From an uncultured delta proteobacterium (GTDB lineage: Bacteria > Myxococcota_A > Polyangia > Polyangiales > Polyangiaceae), in the NCBI GenBank assembly GCA_963731595.1, contig CAVSWE010000003.1, positions 300,948 to 345,914 of the forward strand: a stretch of 44,967 nt of DNA. Direction: 5' to 3'. Below, one piece after another: positions 1 through 40,820 of this stretch (position 1 is the stretch's first letter; every line of letters begins with the position of its first letter). The notes under the pieces were generated by a model, which did not search any database, was not told where the DNA came from, and saw nothing but the letters and a program-made list of their open reading frames with translations. The translations under genes and the position numbers were made by a program.

Positions 1-115
1 CAAGCGCTTCGACGATATGCGTCTGCGGCGTGATGGGATAGGCGCAGATTACCTGGGGCCGGCAAAGCGCGATCGCCTCTGCAACCGCGCGCGATCCTTC
101 GGTCTGTTTAAGCAT
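1..115 (-). CDS. 2-oxoacid (pyruvate/2-oxoglutarate):ferredoxin oxidoreductase alpha subunit, N-terminal 38 aa only (runs off window)
   Basis: Reverse translation from the ATG at 115..113 gives [38 protein letters not shown], the conserved N-terminus of OFOR alpha subunits (AYPITPQT motif). The start overlaps the stop of the upstream gamma subunit gene. Confidence 0.6.
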
Positions 116-686
116 CGATCGTGTCTTTCGCTTGGGCGGCGAGCTCGAATGCTTCCGTCGCCGCGGCGACGTTCTTCTCCGCTACCGCCGCAGGAAATTT
201 CTGGCGGATGGCCGCGACGACCGAAGCCAGCGCGATCCGCTCAGTAACCGCGGCAAAGCCGCCGAGCAGCGCCGCGTTCGGCACCGGGCGGCCCACGTGC
301 TTGAGCGCAAGCTCGGTGGCCGGGAGCGAGCACAGGCGATAGCGCCCGACGCCCCGCGCGAACGGGCCCAGCCCGAGCTCGTCGAAGCTGCGCGTCGAGT
401 TGATCAGGATATAGCCATGCGGCTGGAGGCCACTGAACACGTCGACCTGATGCAGCAACGTCGGGTCCTGCACGATCAATGCATCGGGCTCCAGGACCGG
501 CTCGCGTAAGCGAATTTCCTTGTCGTCGATGCGGCAGAACGCCATCACGGGCGCGCCCATGCGCTCCGAGCCGAAGCTGGGAAACGCCTGGGCATAACGC
601 CCTTCGAGAAACGCCGCGACGGACAGCATTTCGGCGCCCGATACCACGCCCTGACCACCGCGGCCGTGAATCCGGATCTGGAACAT
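108..686 (-). CDS. 2-oxoacid:ferredoxin oxidoreductase gamma subunit
   Basis: ORF 108..821(-). The conserved part starts at [54 protein letters not shown], the signature of POR/KOR gamma subunits. Start set at internal ATG 686. Confidence 0.75.
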
Positions 687-789
687 GTCTGGTCGCGCCT
701 CGGTGTTCGCCGCAAGCCCTTGCGGCCCATTCATTGGGGAAAATCCTCCTGCCGACCCGGGAATTGTCCCCGTATTGCCGAAACCTATC

Positions 790-803
790 TTGACGCAGGT
801 CAA
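790..803. promoter_or_regulatory. FNR/Crp-family binding site TTGAC-N4-GTCAA in the divergent intergenic region between the OFOR gamma gene and frdC
   Basis: Perfect palindrome ttgacgcaggtcaa at 790..803. It lies ~140 bp upstream of the frdC ATG (943) and ~100 bp upstream of the divergent OFOR gamma start (686). Confidence 0.4.
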
Positions 804-942
804 CACTCGCCGACGGACCACGCGCTAGCTTCACGGGGCCTCGCCCGGATGACTGCAGCGGCCCGTGGACGGGCCGTTTCAGCCGGGACCGCGAGCCCGG
901 AAACGAGCACGGCGTCGACCACGCCGGGAAAGGAAGCGCACG

Positions 943-1750
943 ATGGAGCATAGCGGCCCGCTCATCGCCGGCGTCGGGCTCACCGACCCTGCCCGGCGCA
1001 GCCATTGGCCGGCGAGGCTGGACCTGGCGCAGAGCGCCTCGGGTCTCCTGCTCGCGCTTTTCATGTGGGCGCATATGGCCTTCGTCTCGTCGATCCTGCT
1101 TGGCAAGGACGTCATGTGGATGGTCACGAAATTCTTTGAAGGCTATTTTCTCTTCGGCCGGTCCTATCCGGGGCTTGTCTCGACCGTGGTCGCGCTGGTC
1201 ATCGCGCTCGTGGTAACGCACGCCATTCTGGCGCTGCGCAAATTCCCGATTAACTACCGTCAGTTCAGCACCTTTCGCGGCCATATGCGGATGCTGCGGC
1301 ACGAGGACACAACGCTTTGGTTCTGGCAGGTTGTCACTGGCTTCGCCCTGTTCTTTCTCGCCTCGGTGCACCTCTACATCATGCTTACCCGGCCCGACCG
1401 TATCGGGCCGTTCGAATCCGCCGACCGGGTGTGGAGCGACCATTTCTGGCCGCTGTATATCGTGCTACTGCTGACCGTCGAGGTGCACGGCGGGGTCGGC
1501 CTGTACCGGCTTGGCCGTAAAATGGGGTTGGTTCGCAGGCGGCGATGCGAACGCGGTGCGGCGTCGGCTCAAGCTCGCCAAATGGGCGCTGACGGCCTTC
1601 TTTCTGGTCCTTGGCGTGGCGACTCTGGCCGCCTATATCAAGATCGGCATCGAGCACCGTGACCACTATGGCGAGCACTACGTTCCCGCGGCGCAGCAAG
1701 CGTCGTCACCCCAACCCGCCGCTGGGGGCGCGGCGGGGAGCCCTCGGTGA
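943..1750 (+). CDS. frdC: quinol:fumarate reductase dihaem cytochrome b membrane subunit (Wolinella type), +1 frameshift at ~1511-1516
   Basis: [11 protein letters not shown]...[14 protein letters not shown]...[54 protein letters not shown]...GLYRL aligns along its length with W. succinogenes FrdC. The C-terminus ..[16 protein letters not shown] continues in the +1 frame (ORF 1511..1750). An extra G in cttGGccg breaks the frame. The frdC stop overlaps the frdA GTG (GTGA). Confidence 0.8.
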
Positions 1751-3765
1751 ACGTGATCTACACCGACGTGCTGGTGATCGGCGGTGGCCTCGCCGGGTTG
1801 CGGATCGGCATCGGTGCCAAACGCCGCGGCCAAGACGTGATCATCCTGTCGCTCGTCCCGCCCAAGCGCTCGCACTCTGCGGCGGCGCAAGGCGGCATGC
1901 AGGCGAGCCTGGGCAACGTCGTCAAGGCGATGGGTGACAACGAGGACGTGCATTTCGAAGACACCGTGCGGGGCAGCGACTGGGGCGCCGATCAGCGCGT
2001 CGTGCGCATGTTCGTCGACACGGCGCCCAAGGCCGTGCGCGAGCTTGCCGCGTGGGGCGTGCCGTGGAGCCGCGTGCAGAAAGGTGACCGGAAGGTGATC
2101 ATCAACGGGCAGAAGGTCACGATCACGGAGCGCGACGAAGCGCATGGACTGGTGATGCAACGCGACTTCGGTGGTACCAAGAAATGGCGCGCCTGCTACG
2201 TCTCCGACGGCACGGGTCACGCCATGCTGTACGCGATGAGCGACCAGGCAATCGCCCACGCGATCAGCGTGCACGAGCGCATGGAGGCCCTGGCGCTGAT
2301 CCACGACGGGTCGCGCTGCTATGGTGCGGTAGTACGCAACCTCGTGACCGGGAAATTGGTCGCGTACGTCGCCAAGGCTACCGCCATTGCGAGCGGCGGC
2401 GCGGGACGCCTCTATCGCGCGACGACCAACGCGGTCATCTGCGAGGGCATCGGCACGGCGCTGGCGTTGGAGACCGGCGTGGCAATGGTAGCCAACATGG
2501 AGGCGATCCAGTTTCACCCGACGGCAATCTTTCCGGCATGCATTCTGGTCACCGAAGGCTGCCGTGGGGACGGTGGATTGCTGCGCGACGCTGCGGGCAA
2601 GCGCTTCATGCCCGACTACGAGCCGGAGAAGAAGGAACTCGCCTCGCGCGACGTCGTATCCCGGCGCATGGAAGAGCACATCCGCAGGGGCGCGGGCGTG
2701 AAGTCACGGTTCGGCGAGCATCTGTGGCTCGACATCACCCTGCTCGGGGCCAAGCACATCGACAGCAACCTGCGCGAAGTGAAGGAGATCTGCCACTATT
2801 TCCTCGGCATCGATCCGATCAAGGATTGGATACCGGTGCGACCGGCACAGCATTACACGATGGGCGGGATCCGGACCGACCACACCGGCGGTAGCCCGAC
2901 GCTCAAAGGACTCTACGCCGCCGGCGAAGCCGCGTGCTGGGACCTGCACGGCTTTAACCGCCTGGGTGGAAACTCGGTCGCGGAAACCGTCGTCGGCGGC
3001 ATGATCGTGGGCGAGTTCATCGCCGATTTCTGTGCTCGTCCCGAGAGCAACCTGCAGTTCTCCACCGGCCTGATCCGCGAATTCCTGGAGCACGAGCAGG
3101 CCAAGCTCGACGCGCTCGCCGGTAACCGGGGCGGGGAAGAAGCCAACGCATTGCGGGTCCGAATGCAGGAGATCATGACGACCAAGGTCGGGATCTTCCG
3201 CACCGGCGGGGAGCTTGCCGCCGCGGTCGAGGAGCTGCAGTCGCTGCTGCGGCGCAGTCAGAACATCGGCCTGCGCTGCACCGCAAGTGGCGCAAATCCG
3301 GAGCTCGTTTCCGCCTACCGGGTCCAGAAGATGCTGCGGCTGGCGCTGTGCGTCGCCTACGGCGCGCTGACTCGGACCGAGAGCCGGGGCGCGCATTTTC
3401 GCCATGACTATCCGCGGCGCGACGACGCCGAATGGCTGAACCGCACGCTAGCAACGTGGAAGAGCGCCGACGACATGCTGCCGACGCTGGCACGCGAATC
3501 GCTTGACGTGATGCAGATGGAGCTGCCGCCGGGGTGGCGCGGATATGGGGCGAAGGACTACGTCGAGCATCCCGACACGGCGCGTCGTACCGCGGAGGTG
3601 GAGGCGATCAGGACCAGGCTCGTCAGTGCCGGCCGCGGGGTCGTACAGGAGGCCCTGATGCCGTACGCTGAGCTCATGCCCGAGCGCTTCCGCGGACCCA
3701 ACGAGCGCATCGATGAGCCGCTGCCACCGTCTCCCGCAGGCCCGCAACGACCGAGCCCGACATGA
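1747..3765 (+). CDS. frdA: fumarate reductase flavoprotein subunit
   Basis: 672-aa ORF with GTG start. It has an N-terminal FAD Rossmann fold ([11 protein letters not shown]), the covalent-FAD His region ([10 protein letters not shown]), and the active-site motifs [11 protein letters not shown] and HYTMGGI typical of FrdA/SdhA. Confidence 0.92.
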
Positions 3766-3822: not shown

Positions 3823-4536
3823 GTGCGGATTAGCGTCCTGCGCTACAACCCGCAGGAGCGCGGCAGTGTTCCCCGCATGCAGGCCTACGAACTCGAAGAG
3901 GCCGAGGGAATGACGCTGTTCATCGCGCTCAACGAAATCCGCGAAAAGCAGGACGCATCCCTGCAATTTGACTTCGTCTGCCGCGCCGGGATATGCGGCA
4001 GCTGCGGGATGCTGATCAATGGGCGCCCAGGGCTCGCCTGCCGTACGCTGACAAAGAACCTGGACCCGGAGATCACGCTGGCGCCCCTGCCGGTCTTCGA
4101 ATTGATCGCCGACCTTTCGGTGAACACCGGCAAGTGGATGCGGGCGATGAGCGAACGGCTGCAGACCTGGGTGCACATGCGCCAGAAAGAGGTGGACACT
4201 TCCCGGCTCGAGGAGCGCATGGAGCCGGAGCTGGCGCAGAAAATTTACGAACTTGATCGCTGCATTGAATGCGGGTGCTGCGTCGCCGGTTGTGGCACCG
4301 CGCGCATGCGCGAAGACTTTGTCGGCGCGGTCGGCCTGAACAAGATCGCCCGTTTCCGGCTCGACCCGCGCGACACGCGCACCGACGCAGACTTCTACGA
4401 ACTGGTCGGTGACGACAGCGGTGTATTCGGTTGCATGTCCTTGCTCGCTTGCCACGATGTCTGCCCGAAGGAGTTGCCGCTCGCAACGCAAATCGCCTTC
4501 ATGCGTCGCAAGATGGTGAGCATCGGTTGGAAATAG
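3823..4536 (+). CDS. frdB: fumarate reductase iron-sulfur subunit
   Basis: 237 aa. It carries the 2Fe-2S motif CRAGICGSCGMLINGRPGLAC and the 4Fe/3Fe cluster motifs CIECGCCVAGC and CHDVCP. Confidence 0.9.
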   Translation: MRISVLRYNPQERGSVPRMQAYELEEAEGMTLFIALNEIREKQDASLQFDFVCRAGICGSCGMLINGRPGLACRTLTKNLDPEITLAPLPVFELIADLSVNTGKWMRAMSERLQTWVHMRQKEVDTSRLEERMEPELAQKIYELDRCIECGCCVAGCGTARMREDFVGAVGLNKIARFRLDPRDTRTDADFYELVGDDSGVFGCMSLLACHDVCPKELPLATQIAFMRRKMVSIGWK

Positions 4537-4568
4537 CAGCGTCTTTTTGCACCCTATGTGGAGGAGTC

Positions 4569-5575
4569 ATGAAGGTCGCAACGAAGTTTGCAACACTAAG
4601 TGTCGCACTGGCTAGTTTAGCGATTGCGTTCGGGGCACCCGCACAGCAGCCGATCATCATCAAGTTCAGCCACGTCGTTGCCGTCGACACGCCCAAGGGC
4701 AAGGGCGCGGAGAAATTCAAGCAGCTGGCCGAGGAGCGTACGAAGGGCCGGGTCAAGGTCGAGGTCTACCCGAACAGCACGCTGTACAAGGACGGCGAGG
4801 AAATCGACGCCCTGCAGCTGGGCTCGGTGCAGATGCTCGCCCCCTCGGTGGCCAAGTTCGGGCCGATGGGGGTGCGCGAATTCGAAGTCTTCGACCTGCC
4901 GTACATCTTTGACGACTTCGGCGAGCTGCACAAGGTCACCGAAGGCGCGGTTGGGAAACTGCTGTTCCAGAAACTCGATTCGAAGGGCATCGTCGGTCTT
5001 GCCTATTGGGACAACGGCTTCAAGGATTTCAGTGCCAACAAGCCGCTTAGGCTTCCCGGCGACGTCAGGGGTCTGAAGATGCGCATCCAGTCGTCGAAGG
5101 TGCTCGATGCCGAAATTCGTGCCCTCGGGGGGATTCCGCAGGTGATGGCCTTCTCCGAGGTGTATCAGGCGCTGCAGACCGGCGTGGTCGACGGCACCGA
5201 GAATCCACCGTCGAATTTCTATACCCAGAAGATGAACGAAGTGCAGAAGTATCTGACCCTGAGCGATCACGGCGTCATCGAATACGCGGTAATCGCGAAC
5301 AAGAAATTCTGGGATGGCTTGCCGGCGGATATCCGCACCATCCTCGAAGGCGCGATGAAGGATGCGACCAAATACGCCAACGACATCGCCAAGGAGGAGA
5401 ACGACAAGGCGCTCGCGGCGGTCAAGGCGACCGGGAAGACTGAAATCCTGACGCTCAGCCCCGATGCGAAGGCGGCCTGGAAAAAGGCGCTCTGCCGGTG
5501 CATCGAGAGATGGAAAGCCGGGTCGGCAAGGACATCATCCAGGAGGTCTACAAGGAAACCGGGTTCAAGCCCTGA
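4569..5575 (+). CDS. dctP: TRAP transporter substrate-binding protein DctP (C4-dicarboxylate), one -1 frameshift in an A5 run at ~5481
   Basis: MKVATKFATLSVALASLAIAFGAPAQQPIIIKFSHVVAVDTPKGKG... is a typical DctP with signal peptide. After ..AAWKK the conserved C-terminus (LPVHREMESRVGKDIIQEVYKETGFKP*) reads in the -1 frame and ends at TGA 5573..5575. The as-given ORF instead runs on to 5711. Confidence 0.8.
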
Positions 5576-5624
5576 CCGAGCGTTGCAGCGCCTGATGCGC
5601 GAGCCGGGTTCGACGCAAACCGAC

Positions 5625-5651
5625 GCCGCTGCGGCCCGCAGCGGCTTTTTT
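5625..5651 (+). terminator. rho-independent terminator (or attenuator) between dctP and dctQM
   Basis: gccgctgcgg-ccc-gcagcggc is a perfect 10-bp GC stem, followed by tttttt. It sits 50 nt after the reconstructed dctP stop. Confidence 0.5.
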
Positions 5652-5694
5652 GTGTGCAGCAGAACGGCGGTCGACCAACCGGGGACGCTTGCGC

Positions 5695-6306
5695 ATGCTG
5701 AAGCTCCTTGACCACCTCGAAGAGTGGCTCATCGCGCTGCTCATGGGCGGCGCGACGTTGATCATCTTCGTGGCCGTCGTTCACCGCTATGCCGCGGGCC
5801 TGCCCATCCCCGTGGTGCAGGACTGGCTGCTTGCGCTCAACCTGTCGTGGGCGCAGGAAGCATGCATCTACATGTTCGTATGGATGGCCAAGTTCGGTGC
5901 CGCTTACGGCGTGCGCACCGGCATCCACGTCGGCGTGGACGTGGTGATCAATCACCTGCCCGACGGCGTGCGCCGCAAGTTCATTCTTTTCGGACTGGGC
6001 GCCGGCGCGCTGTTCACCGGCGTGGTGGCCTCGTTCGGCGCCAGTTTCGTGTGGCAGCTCGCCCACACCGACCAGACCTCGCCCGACATGGAGCTGCCGA
6101 TGTGGCTGGTCTATCTGGCCATTCCCTGCGGCTCGGGGCTGATGTCCTTCCGCTTCCTCCAGGTGGCGTGGAACTTCTGGCGCACGGGCGAGCTGCCGCA
6201 TCACGACCCGACCGACGTGGCGGGCGTCGAAAAAATTGCCGACCAGGACGCCCACGTCGGCCTGGCGCAAGACAATCTTTTTCCCGCGCCGCCTGGCAAG
6301 CGCTGA
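5695..6306 (+). CDS. dctQ: TRAP transporter small permease DctQ
   Basis: MLKLLDHLEEWLIALLMGGATLIIFVAVVHRY... has four predicted TM helices, typical DctQ size and position. Confidence 0.8.
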   Translation: MLKLLDHLEEWLIALLMGGATLIIFVAVVHRYAAGLPIPVVQDWLLALNLSWAQEACIYMFVWMAKFGAAYGVRTGIHVGVDVVINHLPDGVRRKFILFGLGAGALFTGVVASFGASFVWQLAHTDQTSPDMELPMWLVYLAIPCGSGLMSFRFLQVAWNFWRTGELPHHDPTDVAGVEKIADQDAHVGLAQDNLFPAPPGKR

Positions 6307-6309
6307 GCC

Positions 6310-7605
6310 ATGACCTCCGCCATCATCTTCGGGCTGTTGATCGCGCTCATGCTCACCGGCATGCCCATCTCGATCGCGCTCGGGCTCACGGTCCTGACTT
6401 TCGTGTTCACCATGACCCAGGTGCCGATCGAATCGGTGGCCCTGAAGCTGTTCACCGGCATCGAGAAGTTCGAGATCATGGCCATCCCCTTCTTCATCCT
6501 CGCCGGCACTTTCCTCACCCATGGCGGGGTGGCGCGGCGGATGATCAATTTCGCCGCCTCCATGGTCGGCCATTGGCATGGAGGGCTGGCGCTCGCAGGC
6601 ATCATCGCCTGCGCGATGTTCGCGCTTGTATGCGGTTCGAGCGTCGCCACGGTGGTGGCCATCGGCTCCATCGTGCTGCCGGAGATGGTCAAGCGCGGCA
6701 TCCCCATGGACTTCGGCGCCGCCGTGATCACCGTCGCCGGTTCGCTCGGCATCCTGATGCTGCCGTCGATCCCCAAGGTCATCTACGCGATCGCCACCAA
6801 CACCTCGATCGGCGCGTTGTTTGTCGCCGGCCTGCTGCCGGGGATCCTGCTGACCACGATGCTCTGCCTGGTCACCTGGTATATCGCCAAGAAGCGCAAT
6901 TACCCGCGGCTGCCGCGCGAAAGCTGGGGCGCGCGCTTCAAGGCGTTCCGAGAGTCCGTCTGGGGCCTGATGCTCGTGGTCATCATCATCGGCGGCATCT
7001 ACTCGGGGATCTTCACCGCCACCGAGGCGGCCGCGATGGCCGCGGTGTACGCGTTCTTCGTGTCGGTGTTCGTGTACAAGGCCATGCCGCTCAAGGATTT
7101 GCGCAAGGTGCTGCTGACCTCGGCCAACATGAGCGCAATGCTGCTCTACATCATCACCAACGCGGCACTGTTCTCGTTCATCCTCACCAACGAGAACATT
7201 CCGCATGCCCTGGCGGACTGGATTATTGCCAAGGATCTGGGCTGGGTGGGGTTCCTGTTGCTGGCCAACGTGCTGTTGCTCCTGGCCGGCAATTTCATGG
7301 ACCCGTCCTCGGTCATTCTCATCATGGCGCCGATTCTCTACCCCGCGGCGATGACGCTCGGGATCAATCCGGTGCATCTCGGCATCCTGATCGACGTCAA
7401 CATGGAGGTCGGGCTCTGCCATCCCCCGGTGGGGCTCAATCTGTACGTGGCCTCGGGCATTTCGCGCCTCGGCATCACGCAGCTGACCAAGGCGCTGGTT
7501 CCCTGGCTCGTCACCATGCTGATCTTCCTGGTCATCGTCACCTATTGGCCGGCGCTGTCGACCTGGCTGCCGCAGAAGATGGGTATGATGGGGCCGTTGC
7601 CCTAG
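6310..7605 (+). CDS. dctM: TRAP transporter large permease DctM
   Basis: 431-aa polytopic membrane protein with DctM-family sequence throughout (MTSAIIFGLLIALMLTGMPISIALG...). It starts 4 nt after the dctQ stop. Confidence 0.9.
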   Translation: MTSAIIFGLLIALMLTGMPISIALGLTVLTFVFTMTQVPIESVALKLFTGIEKFEIMAIPFFILAGTFLTHGGVARRMINFAASMVGHWHGGLALAGIIACAMFALVCGSSVATVVAIGSIVLPEMVKRGIPMDFGAAVITVAGSLGILMLPSIPKVIYAIATNTSIGALFVAGLLPGILLTTMLCLVTWYIAKKRNYPRLPRESWGARFKAFRESVWGLMLVVIIIGGIYSGIFTATEAAAMAAVYAFFVSVFVYKAMPLKDLRKVLLTSANMSAMLLYIITNAALFSFILTNENIPHALADWIIAKDLGWVGFLLLANVLLLLAGNFMDPSSVILIMAPILYPAAMTLGINPVHLGILIDVNMEVGLCHPPVGLNLYVASGISRLGITQLTKALVPWLVTMLIFLVIVTYWPALSTWLPQKMGMMGPLP

Positions 7606-7647: not shown

Positions 7648-7953
7648 ATGTTACTCCGACCCACTTCGCAGATAAACTTCAGTTCTTTTGGCCCAACCAG
7701 TATGCGGCTCGCAAAGTTCGTCAAGGTACGCGAGGAGAAATTTGGCGGCGTCCTCTTCGAGACGCGCTCGGAGAAGGTTTTTACGCTCAATCCAACGGCC
7801 ATGGCGGTCGTGCGCGAGATCGAAGCAGGCCATGACGAGCGCGAGATCGCCATGCGACTGAAGGCGCGCTTTAACGACAGTACCGACGTGATCGAGCGCG
7901 AAGTCGTCGCGTTCATCGCGGAGCTGCGGCAGAGAAGCCTTGTCGAGGGTTGA
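7648..7953 (+). CDS. PqqD/MftB-family peptide chaperone (RiPP recognition element protein)
   Basis: (M)RLAKFVKVREEKFGGVLFETRSEKVFTLNPTAMAVVREIEAGHDEREIAMRLKARFNDSTDVIEREVVAFIAELRQRSLVEG matches the PqqD-family pattern (FG..L...., LN.ta..vw, C-terminal fi..L). An alternative start is ATG 7702. Confidence 0.65.
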   Translation: MLLRPTSQINFSSFGPTSMRLAKFVKVREEKFGGVLFETRSEKVFTLNPTAMAVVREIEAGHDEREIAMRLKARFNDSTDVIEREVVAFIAELRQRSLVEG

Positions 7954-7957
7954 GCGC

Positions 7958-9112
7958 GTGACAACATTGGCAACGGATAACGGACCCGACTCCGCGATCC
8001 CAGCGACGACCTCGACCTACGCCTGCTCGGAGGACCTCGCCGCGCCACTCTACGTGGCCTGGCAGATCACCAACGAATGCAACCTCGCCTGCCTGCACTG
8101 TATCGAGGAGAGCGGGCCGGGCAAGGCGTTCGCAGATGAGCTCGACGCGGCGCAGATATTCTCGGTGCTCGACCAGTTGCTGGACCACCAAGTCCCCTAC
8201 ATGTCCTTCTCGGGCGGCGAGCCTATGCTGCATCCGCAGTTCTTCGAGATGGTGGAGCACGTCTGCGCGCGTGGCGCCCAGCTCAAGATCGAGACCAACG
8301 GTCATTATCTGTCCGCCGAAAACTGTGCGCGGATGAAGGAACTCGGCGTCAAGGCGGTCCAGGTGAGCCTCGACGGCGCGTCCGCCAAGACGTTCGAGCG
8401 TATGCGCGTGCGCGGGAACTTCGATCGCACGCTCGATGGCCTGCGCAACCTTCGCGCGGCAGGCGTGCCCGTGGAGATTAACTTCTCGCCCGCCTGCTTC
8501 AACGTCCATGAGATCGGCGCGGTCGTCGACCTCGCATACAAGCTGGGCGCATACAGCTTCTACACCGGGACGCACGATGTACACCGGCAACGCCGTCAAG
8601 GCTTGGCGCCACCTGGAAGTTTCGGAGCCGAGCAATACGAGGCGTTCTTCGCTGTTCTGCGGCAAAAAGCCGAGGAGTACCACGGCCGCATGCGCGTCTA
8701 CTTTCACGAGGCGGGGTTGCTCGAGGAGCTGCGTTATCGCCTGCAGCACCCGGCTGCGCTGCTGATCGTGCTCCCGAACGGCCTGGTCAAGCTCATCAAC
8801 GCCTTGCCCTTCGTGTGCGGCGATTTTCGCCGCCAGACGCTGCGGGAAATCTGGGCGAATTTCCGCCGCGCCTGGCACGACCCGCGCGTGGCACAGTTCG
8901 TCGACGAGCTTGGCACCGACCCGGGCGGACACGGACGCTGCACCAATGGGTCTATCTTTGACTGCGCTGCCCGTGCGATCCGGCCGTTCGGCGCGCACGG
9001 CGCTGCACCGGCTGCTCGCCGTTTGCCGCCTGGTGCGCTACCGGTTTTTCCTATATGCCGGGCTGCTGCCGTATCTGCTCGGCGCGGCCTGGGCCTACGC
9101 TCGCGCTGGTAG
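7958..9112 (+). CDS. radical SAM enzyme, MftC/PqqE-like (SPASM-family-like) maturase, paralog 1 of 3. The 3' end is uncertain and there is an internal compensating frameshift pair at ~8570/8623
   Basis: ..PLYVAWQITNECNLACLHCIEESGPGKAFADEL..FSGGEPMLHPQFFEMV..QLKIETNGHYL..VQVSLDGASAKTFERMRVRGNFDRTLDGLRNLRAAGVPVEINF aligns block by block with mycofactocin maturase MftC (CLTWELTYRCNLACVHCLSSSGKRDPGEL...GGGEPTVRPDF...VQISLDGATAEV...). The CxxxCxxC motif follows the W-x-I-T motif. Its tail overlaps the start of the prenyltransferase gene. Confidence 0.72.
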   Translation: MTTLATDNGPDSAIPATTSTYACSEDLAAPLYVAWQITNECNLACLHCIEESGPGKAFADELDAAQIFSVLDQLLDHQVPYMSFSGGEPMLHPQFFEMVEHVCARGAQLKIETNGHYLSAENCARMKELGVKAVQVSLDGASAKTFERMRVRGNFDRTLDGLRNLRAAGVPVEINFSPACFNVHEIGAVVDLAYKLGAYSFYTGTHDVHRQRRQGLAPPGSFGAEQYEAFFAVLRQKAEEYHGRMRVYFHEAGLLEELRYRLQHPAALLIVLPNGLVKLINALPFVCGDFRRQTLREIWANFRRAWHDPRVAQFVDELGTDPGGHGRCTNGSIFDCAARAIRPFGAHGAAPAARRLPPGALPVFPICRAAAVSARRGLGLRSRW

Positions 9113-9897
9113 CCTTCGACGCGCCGATTTTCTGGAGCGGCCTCGCGGGTGTAGTGCTCGCCGTAATCGGCGTCGAGGCATTCAACGAGTATTTCGATTC
9201 ACGCATGGGCACCGACCGCGTCTTCAACCCGGCCGAACTCCCGCCGATGTCTGACGCAGTGCTCTGGTTGGGCATTGCGGCCTTCGCCGGCGCGCTGGCG
9301 GTCGGCATCTACCTGACCGTGCGTGGCGGCTGGCCGATCCTGGCCTTCGCACTCCTGGGTGGAACGGCGGCGATCTTTTATGTGGCGCCCCCGATACGCT
9401 GGGCCTATCGTGGCCTGGGCGAACTGGTCATCGCCCTGTCCTACGGGCCCTGGATGGTACTGGGCAGCCTCTACCTGCAGAGCCAGGCGCTGTCGTGGGG
9501 GGCGCTCTTCGCGTCGCTCGTACCGGGATGCCTGATCATGGCGCTCGCGGTCGTCAACGCGATTCCCGATTACCACCAGGATCGCTTGGTCGGCAAGCGC
9601 AATCTCGTCGTGCGGCTCGGCCGCCGGCGCGCGGTTTGGCTGTATCTTGCCCTTGCGGCAGGCGGACTGCTGGTGGTGCCGGTCGGCGTAGCGAGCGGCA
9701 TCTCCCCGCCACCTGCCTGGCGGCCTTACTGGCGGTGCCGCTGCTCGTGGCCAGCGGCCGCTGCGCGCTGCGGCACTTATGAAACACCGCGCGCCTTTGT
9801 TCCCGCCGTGCGCAGCATCGTCGGCTGCTATCTGGTCGCCGTCGTGCTGTTCACCGCCGGCGTCCTGTGCAGTGGCGTAGCGTCCTTGCGCCCATGA
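8946..9897 (+). CDS. UbiA-family polyprenyltransferase, MenA-like (1,4-dihydroxy-2-naphthoate polyprenyltransferase-like). As given it carries ~3 frameshifts (~9095, ~9715, ~9780)
   Basis: Reconstructed MGLSLTAL..RLVRYRFFLYAGLLPYLLGAAWAYA / LALVAFDAPIFWSGLAGVVLAVIGVEAFNEYFDSRMGTDRV...NAIPDYHQDRLVGKRNLVVRLG has both UbiA Asp-rich motifs (N-x3-D-x5-D and D-x3-D). The NAIPDYHQDRLVGKRNLVVRLG segment matches E. coli MenA NNLRDINSDRENGKNTLVVRLG. The start overlaps the paralog-1 radical-SAM gene; the stop overlaps the paralog-2 start (ATGA at 9894..9897). Confidence 0.7.
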
Positions 9898-10861
9898 ACT
9901 GGATCGATCGCCTGCGCGCGCCGCTGTTCGTGTCCTGGCAGATCACGCGCGACTGCGACCTGTGCTGCCTGCATTGCTGCACCGAGTCGGCGCCGGGGAA
10001 GCGGTTGCCGGACGAACTCGACGCTGCCGAAGCGACGTGGCTGGCCGAGGAGATCGTCCGCAACGCAGTGCCCTACGTGATGCTTTGCGGCGGCGAGCCT
10101 TTGGTCGTGCCGCACTTTTTCGCCCTTGCCGAAGTCGCTGGGGCGGGCAGGCGTCCAGCTGAAGATCGAGACGAACGGGCAGCGCTTCGATGCCAAACTC
10201 GCCGCCCGGCTCGCCCGCCTGCCCGTCCGGTCGGTACAGATTAGCCTGGACGGCGACACACAGGAGGTCTACGAGCGCCAGCGGCCCGGGCGGCTTCGCT
10301 CGCCAAAGCCCATGCGGCCTGCCGCGCCGCTCGTGCGGCCGGGCTGCCGCTCGAAGTCACCTTTGCGCCGACCCGGCTCAACATTCACCAGGCCGGGCCG
10401 GTCATCGAGCGGGCGCGGGCGCTTGGTGCCTTTCGCTTCAATACCGGGCGGCTCATGCGCATCGGCACCGCCGCGCGGCTGTGGGAGAAGCTCGAGCCTT
10501 GCCGAGGAGCAATACCGGGAATTCCGCGCCTGTTGAACCGCATGGCCCGGCGCCTAGAGGGGCAACTGGAGATTTGCCATGCTCCGTTTGACCTCGCGGA
10601 AGGGCTGCGCGGCAGCCTCCAGAACGCCGCCGGCAACCCTGCTCGTGCTGCCCAACGGCTGGGTCAAGGTTGCCGCGGCACTGCCGCAGATCTGCGCTGA
10701 CTTGCGCCGCCATAGCCTTGACGGAGGCCTGGGAGGCCTACCGCAACGCGTGGCGGAGTGATACAGTGCTGGCGGAAGTACGGCGCGCGGTCGCCGATCC
10801 ATCGCGTCACGCGCGAGGCCAACAGTTGGCAGTTGTTGCCCGTCGCCCCGGTGTGACCTGA
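9894..10861 (+). CDS. radical SAM enzyme, MftC/PqqE-like, paralog 2 of 3. It is broken into at least 4 ORF pieces by about five 1-nt indels, from sequencing error or real pseudogenisation
   Basis: The pieces MNWIDRLRAPLFVSWQITRDCDLCCLHCCTESAPGKRLPDELDAAE..CGGEPLVVPHFFALAE / VQLKIETNGQRFD..VQISLDGDTQEVYERQRPG / ..AARAAGLPLEVTFAPTRLNIHQAGPVIERARALGAFRFNTGRLMRIGTAARLWEKLEP / LLVLPNGWVKVAAALPQICADLRRHSL / EAWEAYRNAWRSD.. are collinear with paralog 1 across four reading frames. Confidence 0.6.
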
Positions 10862-10872
10862 CGGAGGGAAAA

Positions 10873-11025
10873 TGAGCGAGTTGAACCTGACGATCGAAGC
10901 CGCCAAGACCGGCGACGAACGCAAGACCGATACGGTGCAGCCGGCGCAAAAGCCGCATGGGAAACGCCCAAGCTCGAGGACGTGTCCGAGCAGGTGATGG
11001 CCCAACCGTATATCCGCTTCACCTG
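10873..11025 (+). CDS. candidate RiPP precursor peptide (51 aa, reconstructed across one frameshift in an A4 run at ~10949-10952); PqqA-like C-terminal core
   Basis: A strong SD (ggaggg-aaa-ATG) precedes it. Frame 1 reads MSELNLTIEAAKTGDERKTDTVQPAQK. After a 1-nt indel in caaaag the frame continues as AAWETPKLEDVSEQVMAQPYIRFT* to the TGA at 11023. The W-x-x-P-x-L-x-D-V...E...Y pattern recalls PqqA (WKKPAFIDLRLGLEVTLY). It sits immediately upstream (20 nt) of paralog 3. Confidence 0.4.
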
Positions 11026-11045
11026 AGATACCCAGAACTTTCGCA

Positions 11046-11982
11046 ATGCCGGGGCGTTCGGTAGAAGAGTACCGAGCACCCCTTTTTCTTGCCTGGCAGC
11101 TGACCAACCGCTGCGCTGCGCGCTGCATCACCTGCTGCGAGGAATCCGGTCCCGATAAGGCATGGGGCGATGAGCTTTCCCGTGACGAGGCGATCGCGCT
11201 TGCACGGCGCATCGCGGCGTTCGGCATCGCCTACGTTGCCTTCGGCGGCGGCGAGCCGCTAGGTGTACCGCATTGCTGGGATCTGCTCGAGCTGCTCGCC
11301 GCGGCCGGCATCGCTCTTAAGATCGAGACCGACGGCAGTCACATCGACGCTTCCGCGGCCGATCGGCTCTCGGCGCTCGGCGTCGAGTGCATCCAAATTT
11401 CGGTCGACGGAGCGACAGCGGCGACGCATGAGCGCGTGCGTCCGGGATCGAGCTTCGCCGCGGCGGTCGCCGCCATCGAGCGACTGGTCGCGCGCGGTCG
11501 TGCACCGCAATTGGTGTTCGTTCCCACCCGCTTCAACTGCACGAGATCGTCGCCGCGTTCGATCTGGCGGCAACGCTCGGCTGCGGCGCATTCGTCACCG
11601 GCCCGCTGATGCGCATCGGCCGCGCCGCGGGCGCACTGGCAGCGCATCGCCTGCAGCAGACGAGGAGTGGCGCGCCGCGGTTACCGCGTTGAGAGAACGC
11701 ACCGCGTCGATGCGGCCCCGGAATGGCCCTTGTCGATCTATCCTTGGGACATTCGTTGCGGAGATGGAAACGCGGCTCGAGCGACCGCAGGCGATGCTGC
11801 TGGTCGTGCCCAACGGCAAGGTCAAGCTGCTCAATGCGCTCCCGTTCGCCGCCGCCGACCTGCGCCGCGATTCGCTCGAGGACGCGTGGCGGGCCTATCG
11901 CGACGCCTGGCATGCGCCGGAGGTGCGCGAATTCATCACCCGCTGCCGCAGCCAATCCAGCGCTGCTGATGCACGCCAATGA
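11046..11982 (+). CDS. radical SAM enzyme, MftC/PqqE-like, paralog 3 of 3 (at least 2-3 frameshifts as given)
   Basis: MPGRSVEEYRAPLFLAWQLTNRCAARCITCCEESGPDKAWGDEL..AFGGGEPLGVPHCWDLLELLAAAGIALKIETDGSHID..IQISVDGATAATHERVRPGSSFAAAVAAIERLVARGRAPQLVFVPTRFN, then in other frames ..AFVTGPLMRIGRAAGAL.. and ..ERPQAMLLVVPNGKVKLLNALPFAAADLRRDSLEDAWRAYRDAWHAPEVREFITRCRSQSSAADARQ*. This is collinear with paralogs 1 and 2. Confidence 0.6.
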
Positions 11983-12112
11983 GACATGGCCGATGGTTAG
12001 GAACGACGGTTGACCCCCGCGCCAGAAACCCCAATACTTAAGCGGCTGTGATTGAATACTTACCCGTCGTAGCGAAGCTTTTGAGGGCCCGGGAGCCCGC
12101 TGATCGGTTGCG

Positions 12113-13095: not shown

Positions 13096-13511
13096 GGAAA
13101 TCGGCCGGCAATGCAGCTCCCCGCGGGACCCAGTACGCTAGGGGAATTTTGCCACGTCCGAGCCTGATCTCAGAAGTTTCTCCTCCGCAAAGGGCTGCTT
13201 CACCGCCCCAGGCCCGACGCGCGGAGCTTGGCCGCAATGGCTGGTGAATTTCGGCTTCACGACCCGGTGATCGCCCGGAGGCGCATCGCGAAATGCGCCT
13301 GGTCTGCGCCAAAGTGGCGCGAACGGCGCCTGGTTGACAGTCGGGGAATCGCCTGGCGGTTGCATGTTAAATCAATAACTTGCGACGCTTACCCTCTTAG
13401 TTGCGCATGAATTAGCGTCGTTGGAGTTTCCTTGAGGTACATCAACAGCCCAGATACGGCTTGGCTATAGGCTTCGTATTGCGGTGCAACAAAATCACGT
13501 CAGGAGCGCCC

Positions 13512-14904: not shown

Positions 14905-16550
14905 TTATGGACGCGCGGCGTCGATGCGCTCGCGGACCGCCCGCCACGCATCCGGCTGGCGCGCCTGCTCGAGCGGCGCTTCGCTATCGTAGGCGACGAC
15001 GAACGCCTGCTCCTCCGGCGCGAGGGGCTCGCACGTACGTAGCTGATAATCGAGCACCGCCAAATCGGCGTCCGAAGCGTCGGATCCTGCCGCGGCACGC
15101 TGCGCTATGCGCTCCCGAAGGGTCGAGTGCGCGCCATGAAATCCACGATCACGAAGGCGATGCCGAGCTCGATCGCGAGATTGCGGAAGAGGTCTCGCTG
15201 CCAGCGGTTGAGGAAAGTCGCGTCGATAATTGCAACGAAGCCGGCACCGACCACCTCTCGCGCCAGCGCGCCAAGCTCCCGGTATGTCGCCTCCGTCGCG
15301 CCGGCCGCGTACAGGCCACGATCGATGCCCGTCGCACCGCGCTCGTGGGCGTCGAGCCCGTGCATGCGCTTGCGCTCGACGTCGCTGCGGATTCGCACCG
15401 CGCCGATCGTCTCCAGCAGCACTCTGCGACAGGGTGGTCTTGCCGCAGCCGGCGAGCCCGTGGGTGACGAGGAGCGCGGGCCGTGTCGGCTGCGCGTAGC
15501 TTCGCGCCAGAGTCACGTGCGCGCGGTATTCGGCAAGCAATGCGCGTCGCGCTGCGCCGGCTTCGAGCTGTGCCGCGCGCAGCCGCGCGATCTTGGCGCG
15601 CACCATCGCGCGGTACACGAGATAGAAGCGCAGCACGGTCAGGCCAGCGTAGTCCCCCGTCCGCTCCAGGTACGCGTTGAGGAAGCGACGGGCCAGATCG
15701 ACTCGTCCGCGATAGTGGAGATCCATGACCGTGAACGCGACCTCGTTCATCACATCAATCCAGCGCATCGCCTCGTTGAATTCGATGCAATCGAAAATGA
15801 CAAGCTCGTCGTCGATGCGCGCGATGTTGTTGAGATGCAGGTCGCCGTGGCACTCGCGGATGAAGCCTTCCTTGCGCCGCCGCAGGAATGCGCCTTGGCA
15901 CGCGGCATGCTCGCGGTCGGTCCAGACGCGGAGCTCTTCGAGCTCGTCGCGTTCCGCCGCCGTCGCCACGTGCGGTCGGAACTGCGCGAAATTTTGCCGC
16001 GCGACGCGCAGAATCTCCTCCGGCGAGCCGAATGTGCCGTCGCGAGGAACGACACCGCTCGAGTCGTGAAAGGCGGCGACCTTCGCCGCCAGCGCATCAA
16101 TGTCGGCGGGTGAGAGCTCGCCGCGCGCCAGGATGCGGCTGGCCAGCGCGTCCTGCGGGAACTCGCGCATCTTCACCGCGTACTCGAGTGCCGGACCGTC
16201 GCCGCCGAGGACCGGAGCGTCAATGCTGCCCGTTATCGGCACGACGTCGAGGTAGAGCGCGGGTGCAAGCCGGCGATTGAGGCGCAACTCCTCTGTGCAG
16301 AAGAATCGCCGCGCCGCGAGTGTCGTGAAATCGAGAAAGCCGAAGTCGACCGCTTTCTTGATCTTGTACGCGTAGTGCCCGGCCAGGAAAACGCAGGAGA
16401 TGTGCGTTTCCAGCCGCTCGACGCGCCGCAGTCCGGCCCGAAGACCGCGGGACGGGAGAGCGCCGCCAGCAGTCGAACCTGATCCGTCTCGGTTGCGACG
16501 AGGGTCGTGGCCCGCTCGGGCGGCATGCGGTGGAAGATGCGTGGTGGCAT
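14905..16550 (-). CDS. bifunctional aminoglycoside-phosphotransferase-like kinase / AAA-family ATP-binding protein (about 3 frameshifts as given)
   Basis: The N-terminal region ..VERLETHISCVFLAGHYAYKIKKAVDFGFLDFTTLAARRFFCTEELRLNRRLAPALYLDVVPI.. plus the APH catalytic motif HGDLHLNNI are followed by a P-loop (GLAGCGKTTLSQ). The ATPase domain continues in other frames (ORF 15105..15422: LLETIGAVRIRSD..) before returning to frame for the C-terminus. Confidence 0.6.
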
Positions 16551-17075: not shown

Positions 17076-18478
17076 TCAGATGATGCGCGAGTTGCGCGCC
17101 GCCCACGCTGCTCACGCAGGTAACGGTCGAATACCATCGCCACCGTGCGAACTAAGAGCCGACCGCGCGGCGTCACGTGGATCGCGTCCGATGCGATTTC
17201 GACCAACCCGTCGTCGGCCAGCGGTGCAAGTGACTTGAGCTCGGTTGCGAAGTAATCGCGGAACGCGATGGCGTACGCGCTCTCGACGCGCTCGAACGAG
17301 ACGGTGAATTGGCACATGAACGCGTGGATCACATCGCGCCGCAAAACGGTCGTCGGCAGAAAGCCGCCAGCCGCGAAAACATGGTAGCGCATCGTCGTCG
17401 AGCCGGGCGTAGTAATCATCCAGAGTACGCAGATTCTGGCTGTAGGACGCACCGACCTTGCCGATTGCGGAAATACCGAATGCCAAAAGATCGCAATCAG
17501 CGTGCGTCGAGTAGCCTTGAAAATTGCGGTGCAGCTTGCCTCACGCTGTGCGACAGCAAGCGCGTCGTCGGGCCGCGCGAAATGATCCATGCCGATGTAG
17601 ACGTAACCGGCGCCGGTCAACTTTTCGATTGCAAGCTCAAGAAGGGCTAACTTGGCCTCCGCCGACGGCAACTCCGCTTCGCTGATGCGCCGCTGCGGCT
17701 TAAACAGATGTGGCACGTGCGCATAGCTGTATAGCGCAAGTCTATCCGGCGCACCGTCGAGCACCTTGTCCAACGTGACGGCCGAAGCCGGCCAAAGTCT
17801 GCCGCGGGAGACCATAGATTAAGTCGATGTTTAAGGAGCGGAAGCCATTCGCACGTGCGGCGTCGAGTACAAATGCGAGTCTCGGCTTCCGATTGAATGC
17901 GGTTCACCGCCTGTTGTACGGCTGGGTCGAAGTCCTGTACGCCGATGCTCATCCGGTTGAAGCCAAGCTCCGAGAGAAGCTTAACCGTCCCGGCGACGCC
18001 AAATGGCGGGGGTCGACTTCGATCGAGCATTCGGCGTCAGGCACAAACGCAAAGCTGTCGTGTAGGACACGCCATAGCAACTGTCATTTCCTCGGCCGAC
18101 AGGAACGTCGGCGTGCCGCCGCCCCAGTGCAACTGTGTGACGGGGGACGCCGAATCGACGAGCCCCGACACGATTGCGACCTCCCTGCCGAGATAGTGGA
18201 TATATTTTGCGGAGCGGCCATGGTCCCGGGTCGTGACCTTGTTGCACGCGCAGTAGTAGCAGATGGTGTTGCAGAACGGCACGTGCACGTACAGCGACAG
18301 CGGCTGCGGCGCGCCGGCTCTGGCGGTTGACAAGCGCGTTAGCGAGATGGTCGGCGGTGAATGCTTCCGTAAAGCGATCTGCCGTCGGATAGGAGGTGTA
18401 GCGCGGCCCAAAGCCATCGTACTTGCGGATCAGATCCGAGTCGAACGGGAGGCCTGTAGTCGGCGTGCAGTGAACCAT
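17076..18478 (-). CDS. hemN: oxygen-independent coproporphyrinogen III oxidase (radical SAM), at least 4 frameshifts as given
   Basis: The pieces [40 protein letters not shown] / [36 protein letters not shown] / [22 protein letters not shown] / [67 protein letters not shown] / [24 protein letters not shown] are collinear with E. coli HemN across several frames. Confidence 0.7.
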
Positions 18479-18706
18479 GTTGGCATCGTGCCAGCCGACC
18501 ATTGCTTTGAACTTGAGCTAGATCAAGCCGGCTGCAGACTCGTTCAGAATCGTGGACACGTGCGCACGTTGCCTCGGCCCATCGCCTATTCGACATCCAT
18601 GTCAGACTGACCGGCCGGGGGGGGCGATTTCTGGGTAGTCCGCACGCCACCACGTCGAGCGACGTAAAGCCACACGGTCGAGGCAAAGTGTGCAGAGAGC
18701 TAAGCA

Positions 18707-19249
18707 TCAAAGTCCAGAGCGTCGGCAACCGAGGAGATTGGCACGCATCCAGACTGCGTGTTCACGTTCAGGCGGCATTTGCGGTCGCTCATCAACGACG
18801 TTGTAGGCGACTTCATAGTGCGCCACGCTGCGGTCATGGCTAAGCATCATGGCTTCGACAGGGGGCGGGACGACAGCGACTCCAACGTCGGCGCCAGCAA
18901 ACGCTTTGATAGCCCCCAAAGACTCCCACAGCGTTAGAGCGCGGATGCTTCCGTCGCCTTCACCGCCTGGATCCCCGACCGGATGCCCTCGGACAGCATC
19001 GCGGCAAACGGCGTCTCTCCAAACGGGGGCCCTCAGCGTCCAGGAAACGCGTGCCACAGATCCTCGCCAAAGTAGGCGAGAGAACTGTATTGGCTGGGCT
19101 GCAACGCGTCCGGCGGCAGCGAATTGGTCGCGGAGAGGCGGTACCATGCCAGCGTGGTTGCCAAACAGACTGCCACGGCGACCGCCATGGCGATTCGAGT
19201 GGCCGATTTGCGCGGGATCCGATTCGTCATCGCCGAATCCTCCTATCAC
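18707..19249 (-). CDS. putative ABM-domain (antibiotic-biosynthesis-monooxygenase-like) protein; N-terminal frame uncertain
   Basis: The C-terminal ..DGSIRALTLWESLGAIKAFAGADVGVAVVPPPVEAMMLSHDRSVAHYEVAYNVVDE resembles the second half of ABM/YgiN-type domains. A TM/signal segment (ORF 19033..19230) lies upstream in another frame. Confidence 0.3.
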   Translation of the reverse strand: MIGGFGDDESDPAQIGHSNRHGGRRGSLFGNHAGMVPPLRDQFAAAGRVAAQPIQFSRLLWRGSVARVSWTLRAPVWRDAVCRDAVRGHPVGDPGGEGDGSIRALTLWESLGAIKAFAGADVGVAVVPPPVEAMMLSHDRSVAHYEVAYNVVDERPQMPPEREHAVWMRANLLGCRRSGL

Positions 19250-19948
19250 CGTTGCGACACTGGTTGCATGTCGAAAACATACCGAGACGATCCGAGAATA
19301 TTATGGTCAGGACTACCGCGAAGCGTCTTGATCAAGGTCAACTAGGCGCGTCTTCGCCTAGCGGCGTTGACTGGCCTCGGCGTCCGGCTCGCTGTTGACT
19401 TTGGCACACCCCTTGCGGGTCGCTGACTTGGTAGGTGGCGGTTTACTACCGTGTGAGTTACCCCCGCTGACGCTGCTCGTTACATAGCGACGCCGGTGAC
19501 GCTCGCCGACCGCAATCGCCGGAATGCAAGGAGAGTGCAATCGGCATCACCGAAATCGACCACACGATCTACCTGTGCACGACCCGGTCGTGAAGATTGC
19601 GACGTTTTACCGCGATCGTTCAAGACGTCACAGACGTCGGCATCCGTTGGAGCGCCCTCGGCGGTCACCGTTGGTGCTTGTTACGTCGTCACAGCAACGG
19701 TGTGCCGGACTCCGCGAGTTGCCGGAACATCAACGCGATGTCGTCGTTTTTGCGCCAGCGACGGGATTGCGGCGCTGAAAGCCTATAAACTGCCCTGGTT
19801 CCAGTACGCGACGCGGAAGTCGTTATCGGTCGCAAACAGCGGGCGCACGCGGGACGAAATGCGGCCGGGAGGTGAAAATCCCGGCCGCGACACACGATGT
19901 CCCACGCTATCCGTTATGACGCTCGGCGAGGGGAGATTTGCATCGATC

Positions 19949-22215: not shown

Positions 22216-22277
22216 GATTGATTTCCTCGTGTTATGCGTCCCACGTTCGTCAGACAACTGTCCAAGGCGTTGGATCC

Positions 22278-22967: not shown

Positions 22968-23037
22968 GGTGTGCTCCTTAAGTGCGGCTCAGGATCCTGG
23001 TCCAGGCCCCGTTGCCGCTGTTCGCGAAATTGTTGAC

Positions 23038-40811: not shown

Positions 40812-40820
40812 TGGCTTTGC

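Follow-up and report, generated by a model that had tools for sequence, protein, structure and literature searches.

An FNR-type palindrome between porG and frdC

The locus described here raises the question of whether one palindrome, lying between two divergently transcribed operons, could act as the activator site of both. The window, i.e., the whole stretch of DNA that was analyzed, comprises 44,967 nucleotides of contig CAVSWE010000003.1. Close to its left end, frdC, the first gene of a fumarate reductase operon (frdCAB), is read in one direction, and porG, the first gene of an operon for a 2-oxoacid:ferredoxin oxidoreductase (OFOR), is read in the other. An earlier note on this DNA had pointed to an FNR-type palindrome between the two genes and had suggested that they are co-induced under anaerobic conditions. 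We predict that the palindrome is a functional bidirectional FNR-type activator site, and put the probability of this at roughly 0.8. The element and the region that holds it are as follows.

790..803, no strand: FNR-type box TTGACGCAGGTCAA, the proposed shared activator site; unique in the window and kept across orthologues
687..942, no strand: divergent control region between porG and frdC, 256 bp, without a sigma-70 or Rfam match

With its perfect 5-bp arms, TTGACGCAGGTCAA at 790..803 is a 14-bp inverted repeat of the TTGAT-N4-ATCAA type. The Anr and Dnr boxes of Pseudomonas, and other proteobacterial FNR boxes, read TTGAT-N4-ATCAA or TTGAT-N4-GTCAA. The TTGAC-N4-GTCAA repeat was found exactly where the earlier note had placed it, and the distances quoted there, about 140 bp to frdC and about 100 bp to the OFOR gene, were measured at 139 nt from the end of the box to the frdC ATG (943) and 103 nt from its start to the porG ATG (686, minus strand). 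It is the sole perfect copy in the window, as compared with 0.04 copies expected by chance from 100 dinucleotide-preserving shuffles, four of which contained at least one. When TTGAY-N4-RTCAA sites with up to one mismatch were counted, the window held nine against 2.84 expected, a number reached in none of the 100 shuffles.

Conservation of the box in related loci

A lone match to 10 specified bases would arise by chance in 45 kb with a probability of about 0.04, and on that count the palindrome might be accidental or, like a hairpin, structural, and play no part in regulation. We compared the window with the best 80 of at least 580 GTDB species genomes that encode a confirmed FrdC relative (66-95% FrdC identity). 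The underlying scan covered one genome per species and returned more than 598 pattern matches, of which at least 580 encode an FrdC relative. Almost all of the best 80 loci come from betaproteobacterial metagenome-assembled genomes (MAGs) labelled Casimicrobiaceae, Burkholderiales, Usitatibacter, Caldimonas, Aquabacterium or Aromatoleum, and the closest of them, L001, is 90% identical to the window at the DNA level over 5.7 kb.

A perfect TTGAY-N4-RTCAA box was present within 400 bp upstream of frdC in 68 of the 80 loci. Altogether, 80 such boxes fell in 31.3 kb of frdC-upstream DNA (2.55 per kb) and 13 in the other 610 kb (0.021 per kb), an enrichment of approximately 120-fold. Three of the 13 outlying boxes sit about 100 bp upstream of a porG gene that is unlinked to frdC (L013, L045 and L066); the OFOR operon therefore retains a box of its own when the two operons lie apart. 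When 19 orthologous intergenic regions were aligned, columns were on average 53% identical, and the box stood out as the invariant block. Its arms are invariant rather than covarying, and a hairpin of 5-bp arms around a 4-nt loop would be too weak to be stable. This alignment and the enrichment, together with the fixed hexamer spacing described below, effectively refute a chance or structural origin of the palindrome, which we regard as vanishingly improbable.

Among the 81 frdC-upstream boxes of the window and the 80 loci, the inner spacer was also constrained. Read in the frdC orientation, position 7 was C in 68 and position 8 was A in 71 of the 81, resulting in the pattern TTGAY-nCAn-RTCAA.

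Predicted promoter geometry on both sides of the box

A candidate -10 hexamer was identified on either side of the box.

826..831, plus strand: predicted frdC -10 hexamer TAGCTT, at a gap of 22 bp from the box; the column of T826 is invariant
768..763, minus strand: predicted porG -10 hexamer GACAAT, 21 bp from the box; A763, T764 and T767 are near-invariant columns

With these hexamers, transcription of frdC would start near 838 and that of porG near 756, so that the box would be centred at about -41.5 and -40.5, respectively. If a 14-bp site has its centre at -41.5, its last base is at -35, and 22 bp separate it from a -10 hexamer that begins at -12. In 19 of 23 FNR-activated promoters, the site is located at -41.5 +/- 4 (PMC3688515). 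The box-to-hexamer gaps of 21-22 bp therefore match the spacing of class II FNR promoters.

This geometry recurs in the related loci. On the frdC side, 55 of 69 loci had TAnnnT at a gap of 21-23 bp from the box, and no other offset between 0 and 39 held this hexamer; the distance from the box to the frdC ATG varies from 40 to 258 nt across the loci, yet the TAnnnT spacing is constant. On the porG side, nAnnnT (CAGAAT, CACGAT or CAGCAT) occurred at exactly 21 bp in 43 of 45 loci. The two genes are directly divergent in 42 loci, 32 of which have a single box and 10 of which have two boxes, 70-114 bp apart. Properly spaced hexamers were present on both flanks in 31 of the 32 single-box loci, and the simplest reading is thus a single dimer site shared by two promoters. 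In the two-box loci, the spacer is longer, each promoter has its own box, and the porG-proximal one keeps the 21-bp type of spacing. Moreover, the single box of most single-box loci lies some 107-122 nt from the porG ATG, which is also where the porG-proximal box of most two-box loci lies.

These porG-side regularities, as well as the box retained by unlinked OFOR operons, argue against a box that serves frdC only, with porG under an independent promoter and the porG-side hexamer a coincidence. Such an arrangement could appeal to the weaker match of GACAAT as compared with TAGCTT, to the ten loci with two separate boxes, and to a clade-specific block between the box and the porG-side hexamer, which could belong to something else. 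We consider it improbable and continue to favor the shared site. The block in question, ATTGCCG at 774..780 (consensus ATTGCCGAAGGCTAC), is a second conserved element of the region; it is confined to the window's own clade, is absent from the two-box loci and may bind another factor.

No match was obtained when 650..1000 was scanned for sigma-70 -35/-10 promoters and for terminators, and the lack of a -35-bearing promoter is what is expected of activator-dependent promoters. An Rfam scan of 600..1100 with E values up to 1 was likewise negative. The predicted 105-nt frdC leader (838..945; -46.7 kcal/mol, z = -0.68) folds no better than shuffled sequence, and inspection by eye alone revealed no NarL-type heptamers around the box. 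In three loci (L008, L021 and L023), the box centre is only 40-41 nt before the frdC ATG and the porG-frdC spacer measures 93-96 bp; this suggests that their frdC messages are leaderless, with the predicted start falling on the ATG itself.

Taken together, the data are consistent with the following scheme. The box at 790..803 would be bound by a dimeric activator of the FNR subfamily (CRP/FNR superfamily), and, once bound, a single dimer would bring in RNA polymerase for transcription both ways, in class II fashion, at two back-to-back promoters that lack a -35 element. A reductive branch, comprising frdCAB and C4-dicarboxylate uptake through dctP(QM), would thereby be switched on together with an oxidative branch, i.e., the OFOR operon, which in relatives includes an NAD(P)-binding/ferredoxin subunit and malic enzyme. 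Oxygen limitation is the most probable signal. In this scheme the transcription starts, the mode of action (activation and not repression), the regulator's identity and the role of oxygen are inferred, whereas the analysis shows the site and its conservation, the constant spacing to the -10-like hexamers and which genes are present.

Several points weigh against the scheme. The related loci are phylogenetically linked and the counts are not fully independent, although despite this kinship the flanks have diverged and the distance to the ATG varies. A tblastn search of the 45-kb window with E. coli FNR gave nothing at E < 1e-3, and the window thus holds no FNR-type gene; the same query matches an FNR homologue in one related locus, L009, at 45% identity. 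Further, the box sequence cannot separate an oxygen sensor of the FNR/Anr type from regulators of the Dnr, NnrR or FixK types. Finally, a frameshift seen in frdC (described below) would, if real, deprive the regulated enzyme of its last membrane helix. The core proposal of the earlier note, an FNR-type box common to the divergent OFOR and frdCAB promoters, is nevertheless supported by comparative evidence, given a box in 68 of 80 loci, the 120-fold enrichment, class II spacing on both sides and a box of the same geometry before hemN (see below).

The cognate regulator

The earlier note had named two Crp/Fnr paralogues of the window, at 27669..28454 (minus strand) and 29523..30161 (plus strand), as candidates for the regulator. 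The E--SR recognition helix of FNR reads TTGAT, its Arg contacting the TTGAT half-site, and the [4Fe-4S] cluster of E. coli FNR is held by C20, C23, C29 and C122. Both paralogues matched only HTH_Crp_2 and, weakly, cNMP_binding, with no match to an FNR-family NCBIfam model, no N-terminal cysteine and no Cys aligned to C122. Their recognition helices read RE-GVTE and RV-GVTE in place of E--SR. The first is 19% identical to E. coli FNR, with GVRREGVTEAAG opposite GLTVETISRLLG and a Glu at the position of Arg213, and the helix of the second, GLRRVGVTEAAS, has Val and Glu at two key positions. Both genes are located in the lower-GC (57% guanine plus cytosine) part of the window. On family matches, cysteines and recognition helix alike, we rejected the two paralogues, which make poor candidates.

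The only FNR homologue in any of the flanks was found in L009 (7557..8201, minus strand). It is 45% identical to E. coli FNR and has an E--SR helix (LETVSR), with G, R and S at the three N-terminal cluster-Cys positions; it may represent a paralogue without the cluster, or else an artefact of assembly. A tblastn search of the window with this protein gave no credible match.

Regulators of the Dnr/NnrR, NarR and FixK types share the TTGAT-N4-ATCAA-type box with FNR. The same site and geometry could thus be used by another member of the FNR subfamily, i.e., a nitric oxide (NO) sensor of the Dnr/NnrR type, NarR, FixK or a cluster-less FNR, in which case the signal would be nitrogen oxides or a regulatory cascade. 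The missing N-terminal cluster cysteines of the L009 homologue fit this possibility, although that N-terminus could itself be an artefact of long-read assembly, and in L085 the frd region adjoins NarXL-like and NarK-like genes. In Dinoroseobacter shibae, moreover, one bidirectional site is used by FnrL and by Dnr proteins (PMC5398030). On the other hand, frdCAB, hemN and OFOR are typical targets of oxygen limitation rather than of NO, and no regulator of the Dnr/NnrR, NarR or FixK type was seen in the window either. We regard another regulator as unlikely; for the functional site proposed here, an oxygen-sensing FNR has somewhat better than even odds.

frdCAB encodes a Wolinella-type fumarate reductase

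The genes transcribed rightward from the control region are listed below.

943..1750, plus strand: frdC, dihaem cytochrome b anchor; matches NF010072 in two pieces (profile 10-200 and 188-252); interrupted by a frameshift
1747..3765, plus strand: frdA, flavoprotein subunit (NF006383, 1113 bits)
3823..4536, plus strand: frdB, iron-sulfur subunit (NF010071, 417 bits)

The first piece of frdC alone scored 297 bits against NF010072 (cut-off 187), and FrdC repaired by removal of one extra base is 268 residues long. Residues 11-241 aligned without gaps to the same residues of Wolinella succinogenes FrdC (2bs2_C), with 127 of 231 identical (55%; E = 6e-78). In this alignment, H44, H93, H143 and H182 (Wolinella numbering), which we take from the literature to be the axial haem ligands, are all identical, as are E66 and E180, whose roles we likewise assume. 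Among 34 relatives, H93, H143, H182, E66 and E180 were invariant and H44 was at least 90% conserved. The solved protein closest to FrdA was 2bs2_A (934 bits, as compared with 356 for E. coli SdhA and approximately 317 for E. coli FrdA), and that closest to FrdB was 2bs2_B. All three subunits are thus nearest to the Wolinella enzyme, and the Wolinella-type label, along with the single dihaem-cytochrome-b anchor noted earlier, is correct. The frdCAB order, with a single anchor of about 250-270 residues encoded first, is that of a type B quinol:fumarate reductase. The reading frames of frdA and frdB are intact and that of frdC is not.

The earlier note had also implied that a Wolinella-type FrdC in a high-GC genome is unusual, which our searches did not support. 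A protein search gave 3572 FrdC relatives at E <= 1e-20 among the candidates scored, the best 120 of them all at least 71% identical, and a relative is encoded in at least 580 GTDB species genomes. Wolinella-type FrdCAB is common in soil Burkholderiales and Casimicrobiaceae MAGs and is no oddity. The third-position GC of frdCAB (0.74-0.83) resembles that of the neighboring genes; if the operon was ever transferred between phyla, the event would be old. The family is large and ameliorated to host composition. Literature searches for a fumarate reductase of Casimicrobiaceae, or for a dihaem fumarate reductase in Betaproteobacteria, yielded nothing relevant. The value of about 65% GC given for the genome holds for the first 4 kb and not for the window overall (60.7%), and in place of a TRAP-rich genome the window contains a single tripartite ATP-independent periplasmic (TRAP) system, dctPQM (4545..7605).

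The frdC frameshift

The interruption of frdC was traced to a single base.

1508..1514, plus strand: 1-nt insertion in frdC, where the window reads CCGGCTTGGCC and L001 reads CC-GCCTGGCC; aligned with L001, L002, L004 and L015

The insertion splits frdC into open reading frames 943..1662 and 1511..1750, a split that the earlier note had overlooked; annotation would otherwise divide such a frameshifted frdC into two genes or list it as a pseudogene. In each of the 80 related loci, FrdC gave one unbroken alignment with no frame change. Other genes of the window are similarly affected. The solute-binding protein gene dctP carries a 1-nt deletion near 5491 (GCGCTC-TGCCGGTGCAT) and matches L001 DctP in two tblastn pieces in different frames; hemN has at least three frame changes relative to an intact homologue; and, farther downstream, a UbiA-like gene, a small peptide gene and a third radical-SAM gene are interrupted. 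A kinase-like gene unrelated to the frd set (14905..16287) also looks frameshifted. The nearest relatives are long-read soil metagenome assemblies in which gene calls are fragmented at other positions; one such case is L082, with a split porA and an frdA truncated at 503 residues. Since frdC is intact in 80 of 80 relatives, other genes of the window are likewise frameshifted and the assemblies of relatives are fragmented elsewhere, an assembly error is probably the cause of the frdC frameshift.

That several putative anaerobic genes of the window are interrupted (frdC, dctP, hemN and the radical-SAM/UbiA module), and that its right half is rich in insertion sequence fragments and truncated genes, might instead indicate a real frameshift in a lineage that is losing fumarate respiration, the FNR box being a relic upstream of a pseudogene. 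We think this unlikely. The frdA, frdB, porG, dctQ and dctM genes are intact and 88-91% identical to those of relatives, the indels are single bases in short homopolymers, and both the unrelated kinase-like gene and the fragmentation elsewhere in the closest long-read assemblies speak against it. Programmed frameshifting in frdC was rejected, as no relative has the extra base and no slippery or stop-codon context was seen.

Other boxes in the window

Further boxes with a spaced hexamer were found at four positions.

18513..18526, minus strand: one-mismatch box TTGATCTAGCTCAA upstream of hemN; CACGAT 22 bp downstream
13432..13445, plus strand: one-mismatch box TTGAGGTACATCAA with TAGGCT at 22 bp, before a short-chain dehydrogenase gene (ATG 13509)
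19328..19341, minus strand: perfect box TTGATCAAGGTCAA with CATAAT at 22 bp on the minus-strand side; downstream open reading frame 18707..19249
32838..32851, plus strand: perfect box TTGACGCTGATCAA with GAGATT at 21 bp, before a Sel1-repeat gene (32894..34516)

The hemN gene, for oxygen-independent coproporphyrinogen oxidase, spans approximately 17099..18502 on the minus strand, its pieces matching TIGR00538, and is a classic FNR/Anr target. Its predicted transcription start falls on the ATG at 18478, and the message could be leaderless. The open reading frame downstream of the box at 19328 had no family match. The expectation that boxes would be enriched before other anaerobic genes of the genome was thus partly borne out within the 45 kb of the window, to which this count applies, where hemN and the three further boxes share the geometry.

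The OFOR operon and its metabolic context

On the other side of the control region, the window holds the beginning of the OFOR operon.

108..686, minus strand: porG, gamma subunit of 2-oxoacid:acceptor oxidoreductase (TIGR02175 PorC_KorC, 189.8 bits against a cut-off of 81.1; profile position 1 at ATG 686)
1..115, minus strand: 5' end of porA (OFOR alpha subunit), 38 codons, running off the window; residues 1-38 of L081 PorA are 100% identical to 115..2 by tblastn

The first gene of the divergent operon, porG, is thus followed by porA, in the gamma (PorC/KorC) then alpha order of an OFOR. In relatives with longer contigs, the operon runs on beyond porG-porA-porB and encodes an NAD(P)-binding protein that resembles GltD and has a PorD-like ferredoxin domain (NF009410, 539 bits), as well as malic enzyme and a 158-residue protein with a cNMP-binding domain only. 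The GltD-like protein and the PorD-like domain are fused or adjacent (L081 3033..9722, minus strand; L084 1..4786, minus strand). With these genes, the relatives' enzyme looks closer to the NAD-linked 2-oxoacid oxidoreductases of five subunits than to one that depends simply on ferredoxin, and the ferredoxin-linked oxidation of the earlier note may become NAD(P)-linked oxidation via a ferredoxin-like subunit; the window itself holds only porG and 38 codons of porA.

In relatives, frdCAB is followed either by DctPQM or by fumarase (FumC) and a DcuB-type carrier. With these genes it would be possible for malate and fumarate to be partly oxidized, through malic enzyme and then OFOR, and partly reduced to succinate, a dismutation scheme that fits co-induction from one site.

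Genes downstream of frdCAB

A TRAP system and a six-gene module follow frdB.

4545..5572, plus strand: dctP, TRAP solute-binding protein (TIGR00787, 322 bits), with the 1-nt deletion near 5491
5625..5645, plus strand: terminator-like hairpin GCCGCTGCGGCCCGCAGCGGC then TTTTTTGTGT (T-run), between dctP and dctQ
5650..6306, plus strand: dctQ (Pfam DctQ, 87.7 bits)
6310..7605, plus strand: dctM (Pfam DctM, 431.5 bits)
7648..11985, plus strand: six-gene module; the same module spans 13666..17983 in L081, 8806..13048 in L083, 8759..13096 in L084 and 8759..13040 in L085

Because the hairpin after dctP is strong and terminator-like, the genes beyond it may not depend fully on the frdC promoter.

The module reads, in order, a PqqD-like protein, a radical-SAM protein, a MenA/UBIAD1-like UbiA prenyltransferase, a second radical-SAM protein, a 51-residue peptide and a third radical-SAM protein. 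Its position varies: it is preceded by dctPQM in the window, immediately by frdB in L081, L084 and seven or eight of the 80 loci, and by fumC-dcuB in L085, and in a Caldimonas MAG it sits beside hemN and a Usp gene. None of its members reached any NCBIfam cut-off. The prenyltransferase, whose family has more than 2200 close members, is nearest to MenA models, below every cut-off, and its sole solved relative is human UBIAD1; the radical-SAM proteins are nearest to the mycofactocin, AhbD/NirJ, SkfB and PqqE families, again below the cut-offs. While the first half of the peptide varies, its C-terminal 25 residues (KP[AV]WETPKLEDVSEQVMAQPYIRFT) are the same in the window and in four other species. 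A TGCTAnnAT -10-like element precedes the PqqD gene in three loci. We found no description in the literature of PqqD combined with UbiA or a polyprenyltransferase.

The Wolinella-type dihaem fumarate reductase needs a low-potential quinol, menaquinol, and betaproteobacteria generally make ubiquinone. A literature search on the quinones of Usitatibacter returned nothing pertinent. On the basis of gene neighborhood and family resemblance, the module could conceivably make a peptide-derived, prenylated, membrane-bound redox cofactor that serves as the low-potential donor for fumarate reductase. We consider this doubtful; if true, the FNR-controlled locus would be a self-contained unit for fumarate respiration, carrier included.

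The right half of the window (20000..44967) has a GC content of about 57%, as compared with 65%, and contains transposase-like fragments at 38.3-39.4 kb, 42.4-43.2 kb and 43.8-44.5 kb. It also encodes a truncated sulfatase, a patatin-like lipase, a four-domain beta/gamma-crystallin protein, a CHRD-domain protein, SodB and the two CRP-family genes. This half has the look of mobile or decaying DNA that has nothing to do with the frd locus.

Comparison with known systems

Fumarate reductase under FNR control has been described before, as have bidirectional FNR sites, and the conceptual advance is small; the radical-SAM/PqqD/MenA-like/peptide module is the more unusual feature. What the locus offers is a prediction that can be tested: in Casimicrobiaceae and related Burkholderiales, a large group of soil betaproteobacteria with almost no cultured members, one site would control both halves of a malate/fumarate dismutation-type metabolism. 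It also suggests that the widespread soil organisms of this group are facultative fumarate respirers.

The half-sites of the box are identical to those in Anr/Dnr/FNR boxes of Pseudomonas and other Proteobacteria, and hemN, an Anr target in Pseudomonas, likewise has an FNR-type box in the window. The clade consensus, TTGAC-GCAG-GTCAA, differs from these general boxes in its conserved inner C and A. The enzyme is closest to W. succinogenes FrdCAB (2BS2, 1QLB, 1E7P), with which it shares the order frdC-frdA-frdB, the haem ligands, E66 and E180. In contrast to the Wolinella protein, FrdC of the window has a longer C-terminal tail (268 as compared with 256 residues) and its gene is frameshifted in the assembly; the host is taken to be a high-GC betaproteobacterium.

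Like the window, the frdABCD locus of E. coli is a fumarate reductase operon with an FNR-type site just upstream of the -10 region. Its site, TCGATctcgTCAAA, is degenerate, is centred at -45.5 and is not common to a divergent operon, unlike that of the window, and its enzyme is haem-free with two small anchors, FrdCD, in place of a single dihaem anchor. Direct activation of the operon by FNR is documented in PMC3688515, which cites Jones and Gunsalus (1987).

The nirS/nosR2 region of D. shibae provides the closest parallel in promoter layout. One central Fnr/Dnr site lies there 39.5 and 41.5 bp upstream of the divergent transcription starts, as established with reporter fusions and box mutations (PMC5398030). 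As in the window, a single TTNAC-N4-GTCAA palindrome occupies the middle of a divergent region, approximately 40-41.5 bp from both starts, which in the window are predicted from the gaps of 22 and 21 bp to the hexamers, and the D. shibae site activates both operons under oxygen limitation. The targets there are denitrification genes in an alphaproteobacterium, whereas here they are fumarate respiration and OFOR genes in a betaproteobacterium; and the starts and box mutations were measured in D. shibae, whereas the window is known from its sequence, with the remainder of the parallel predicted from it.

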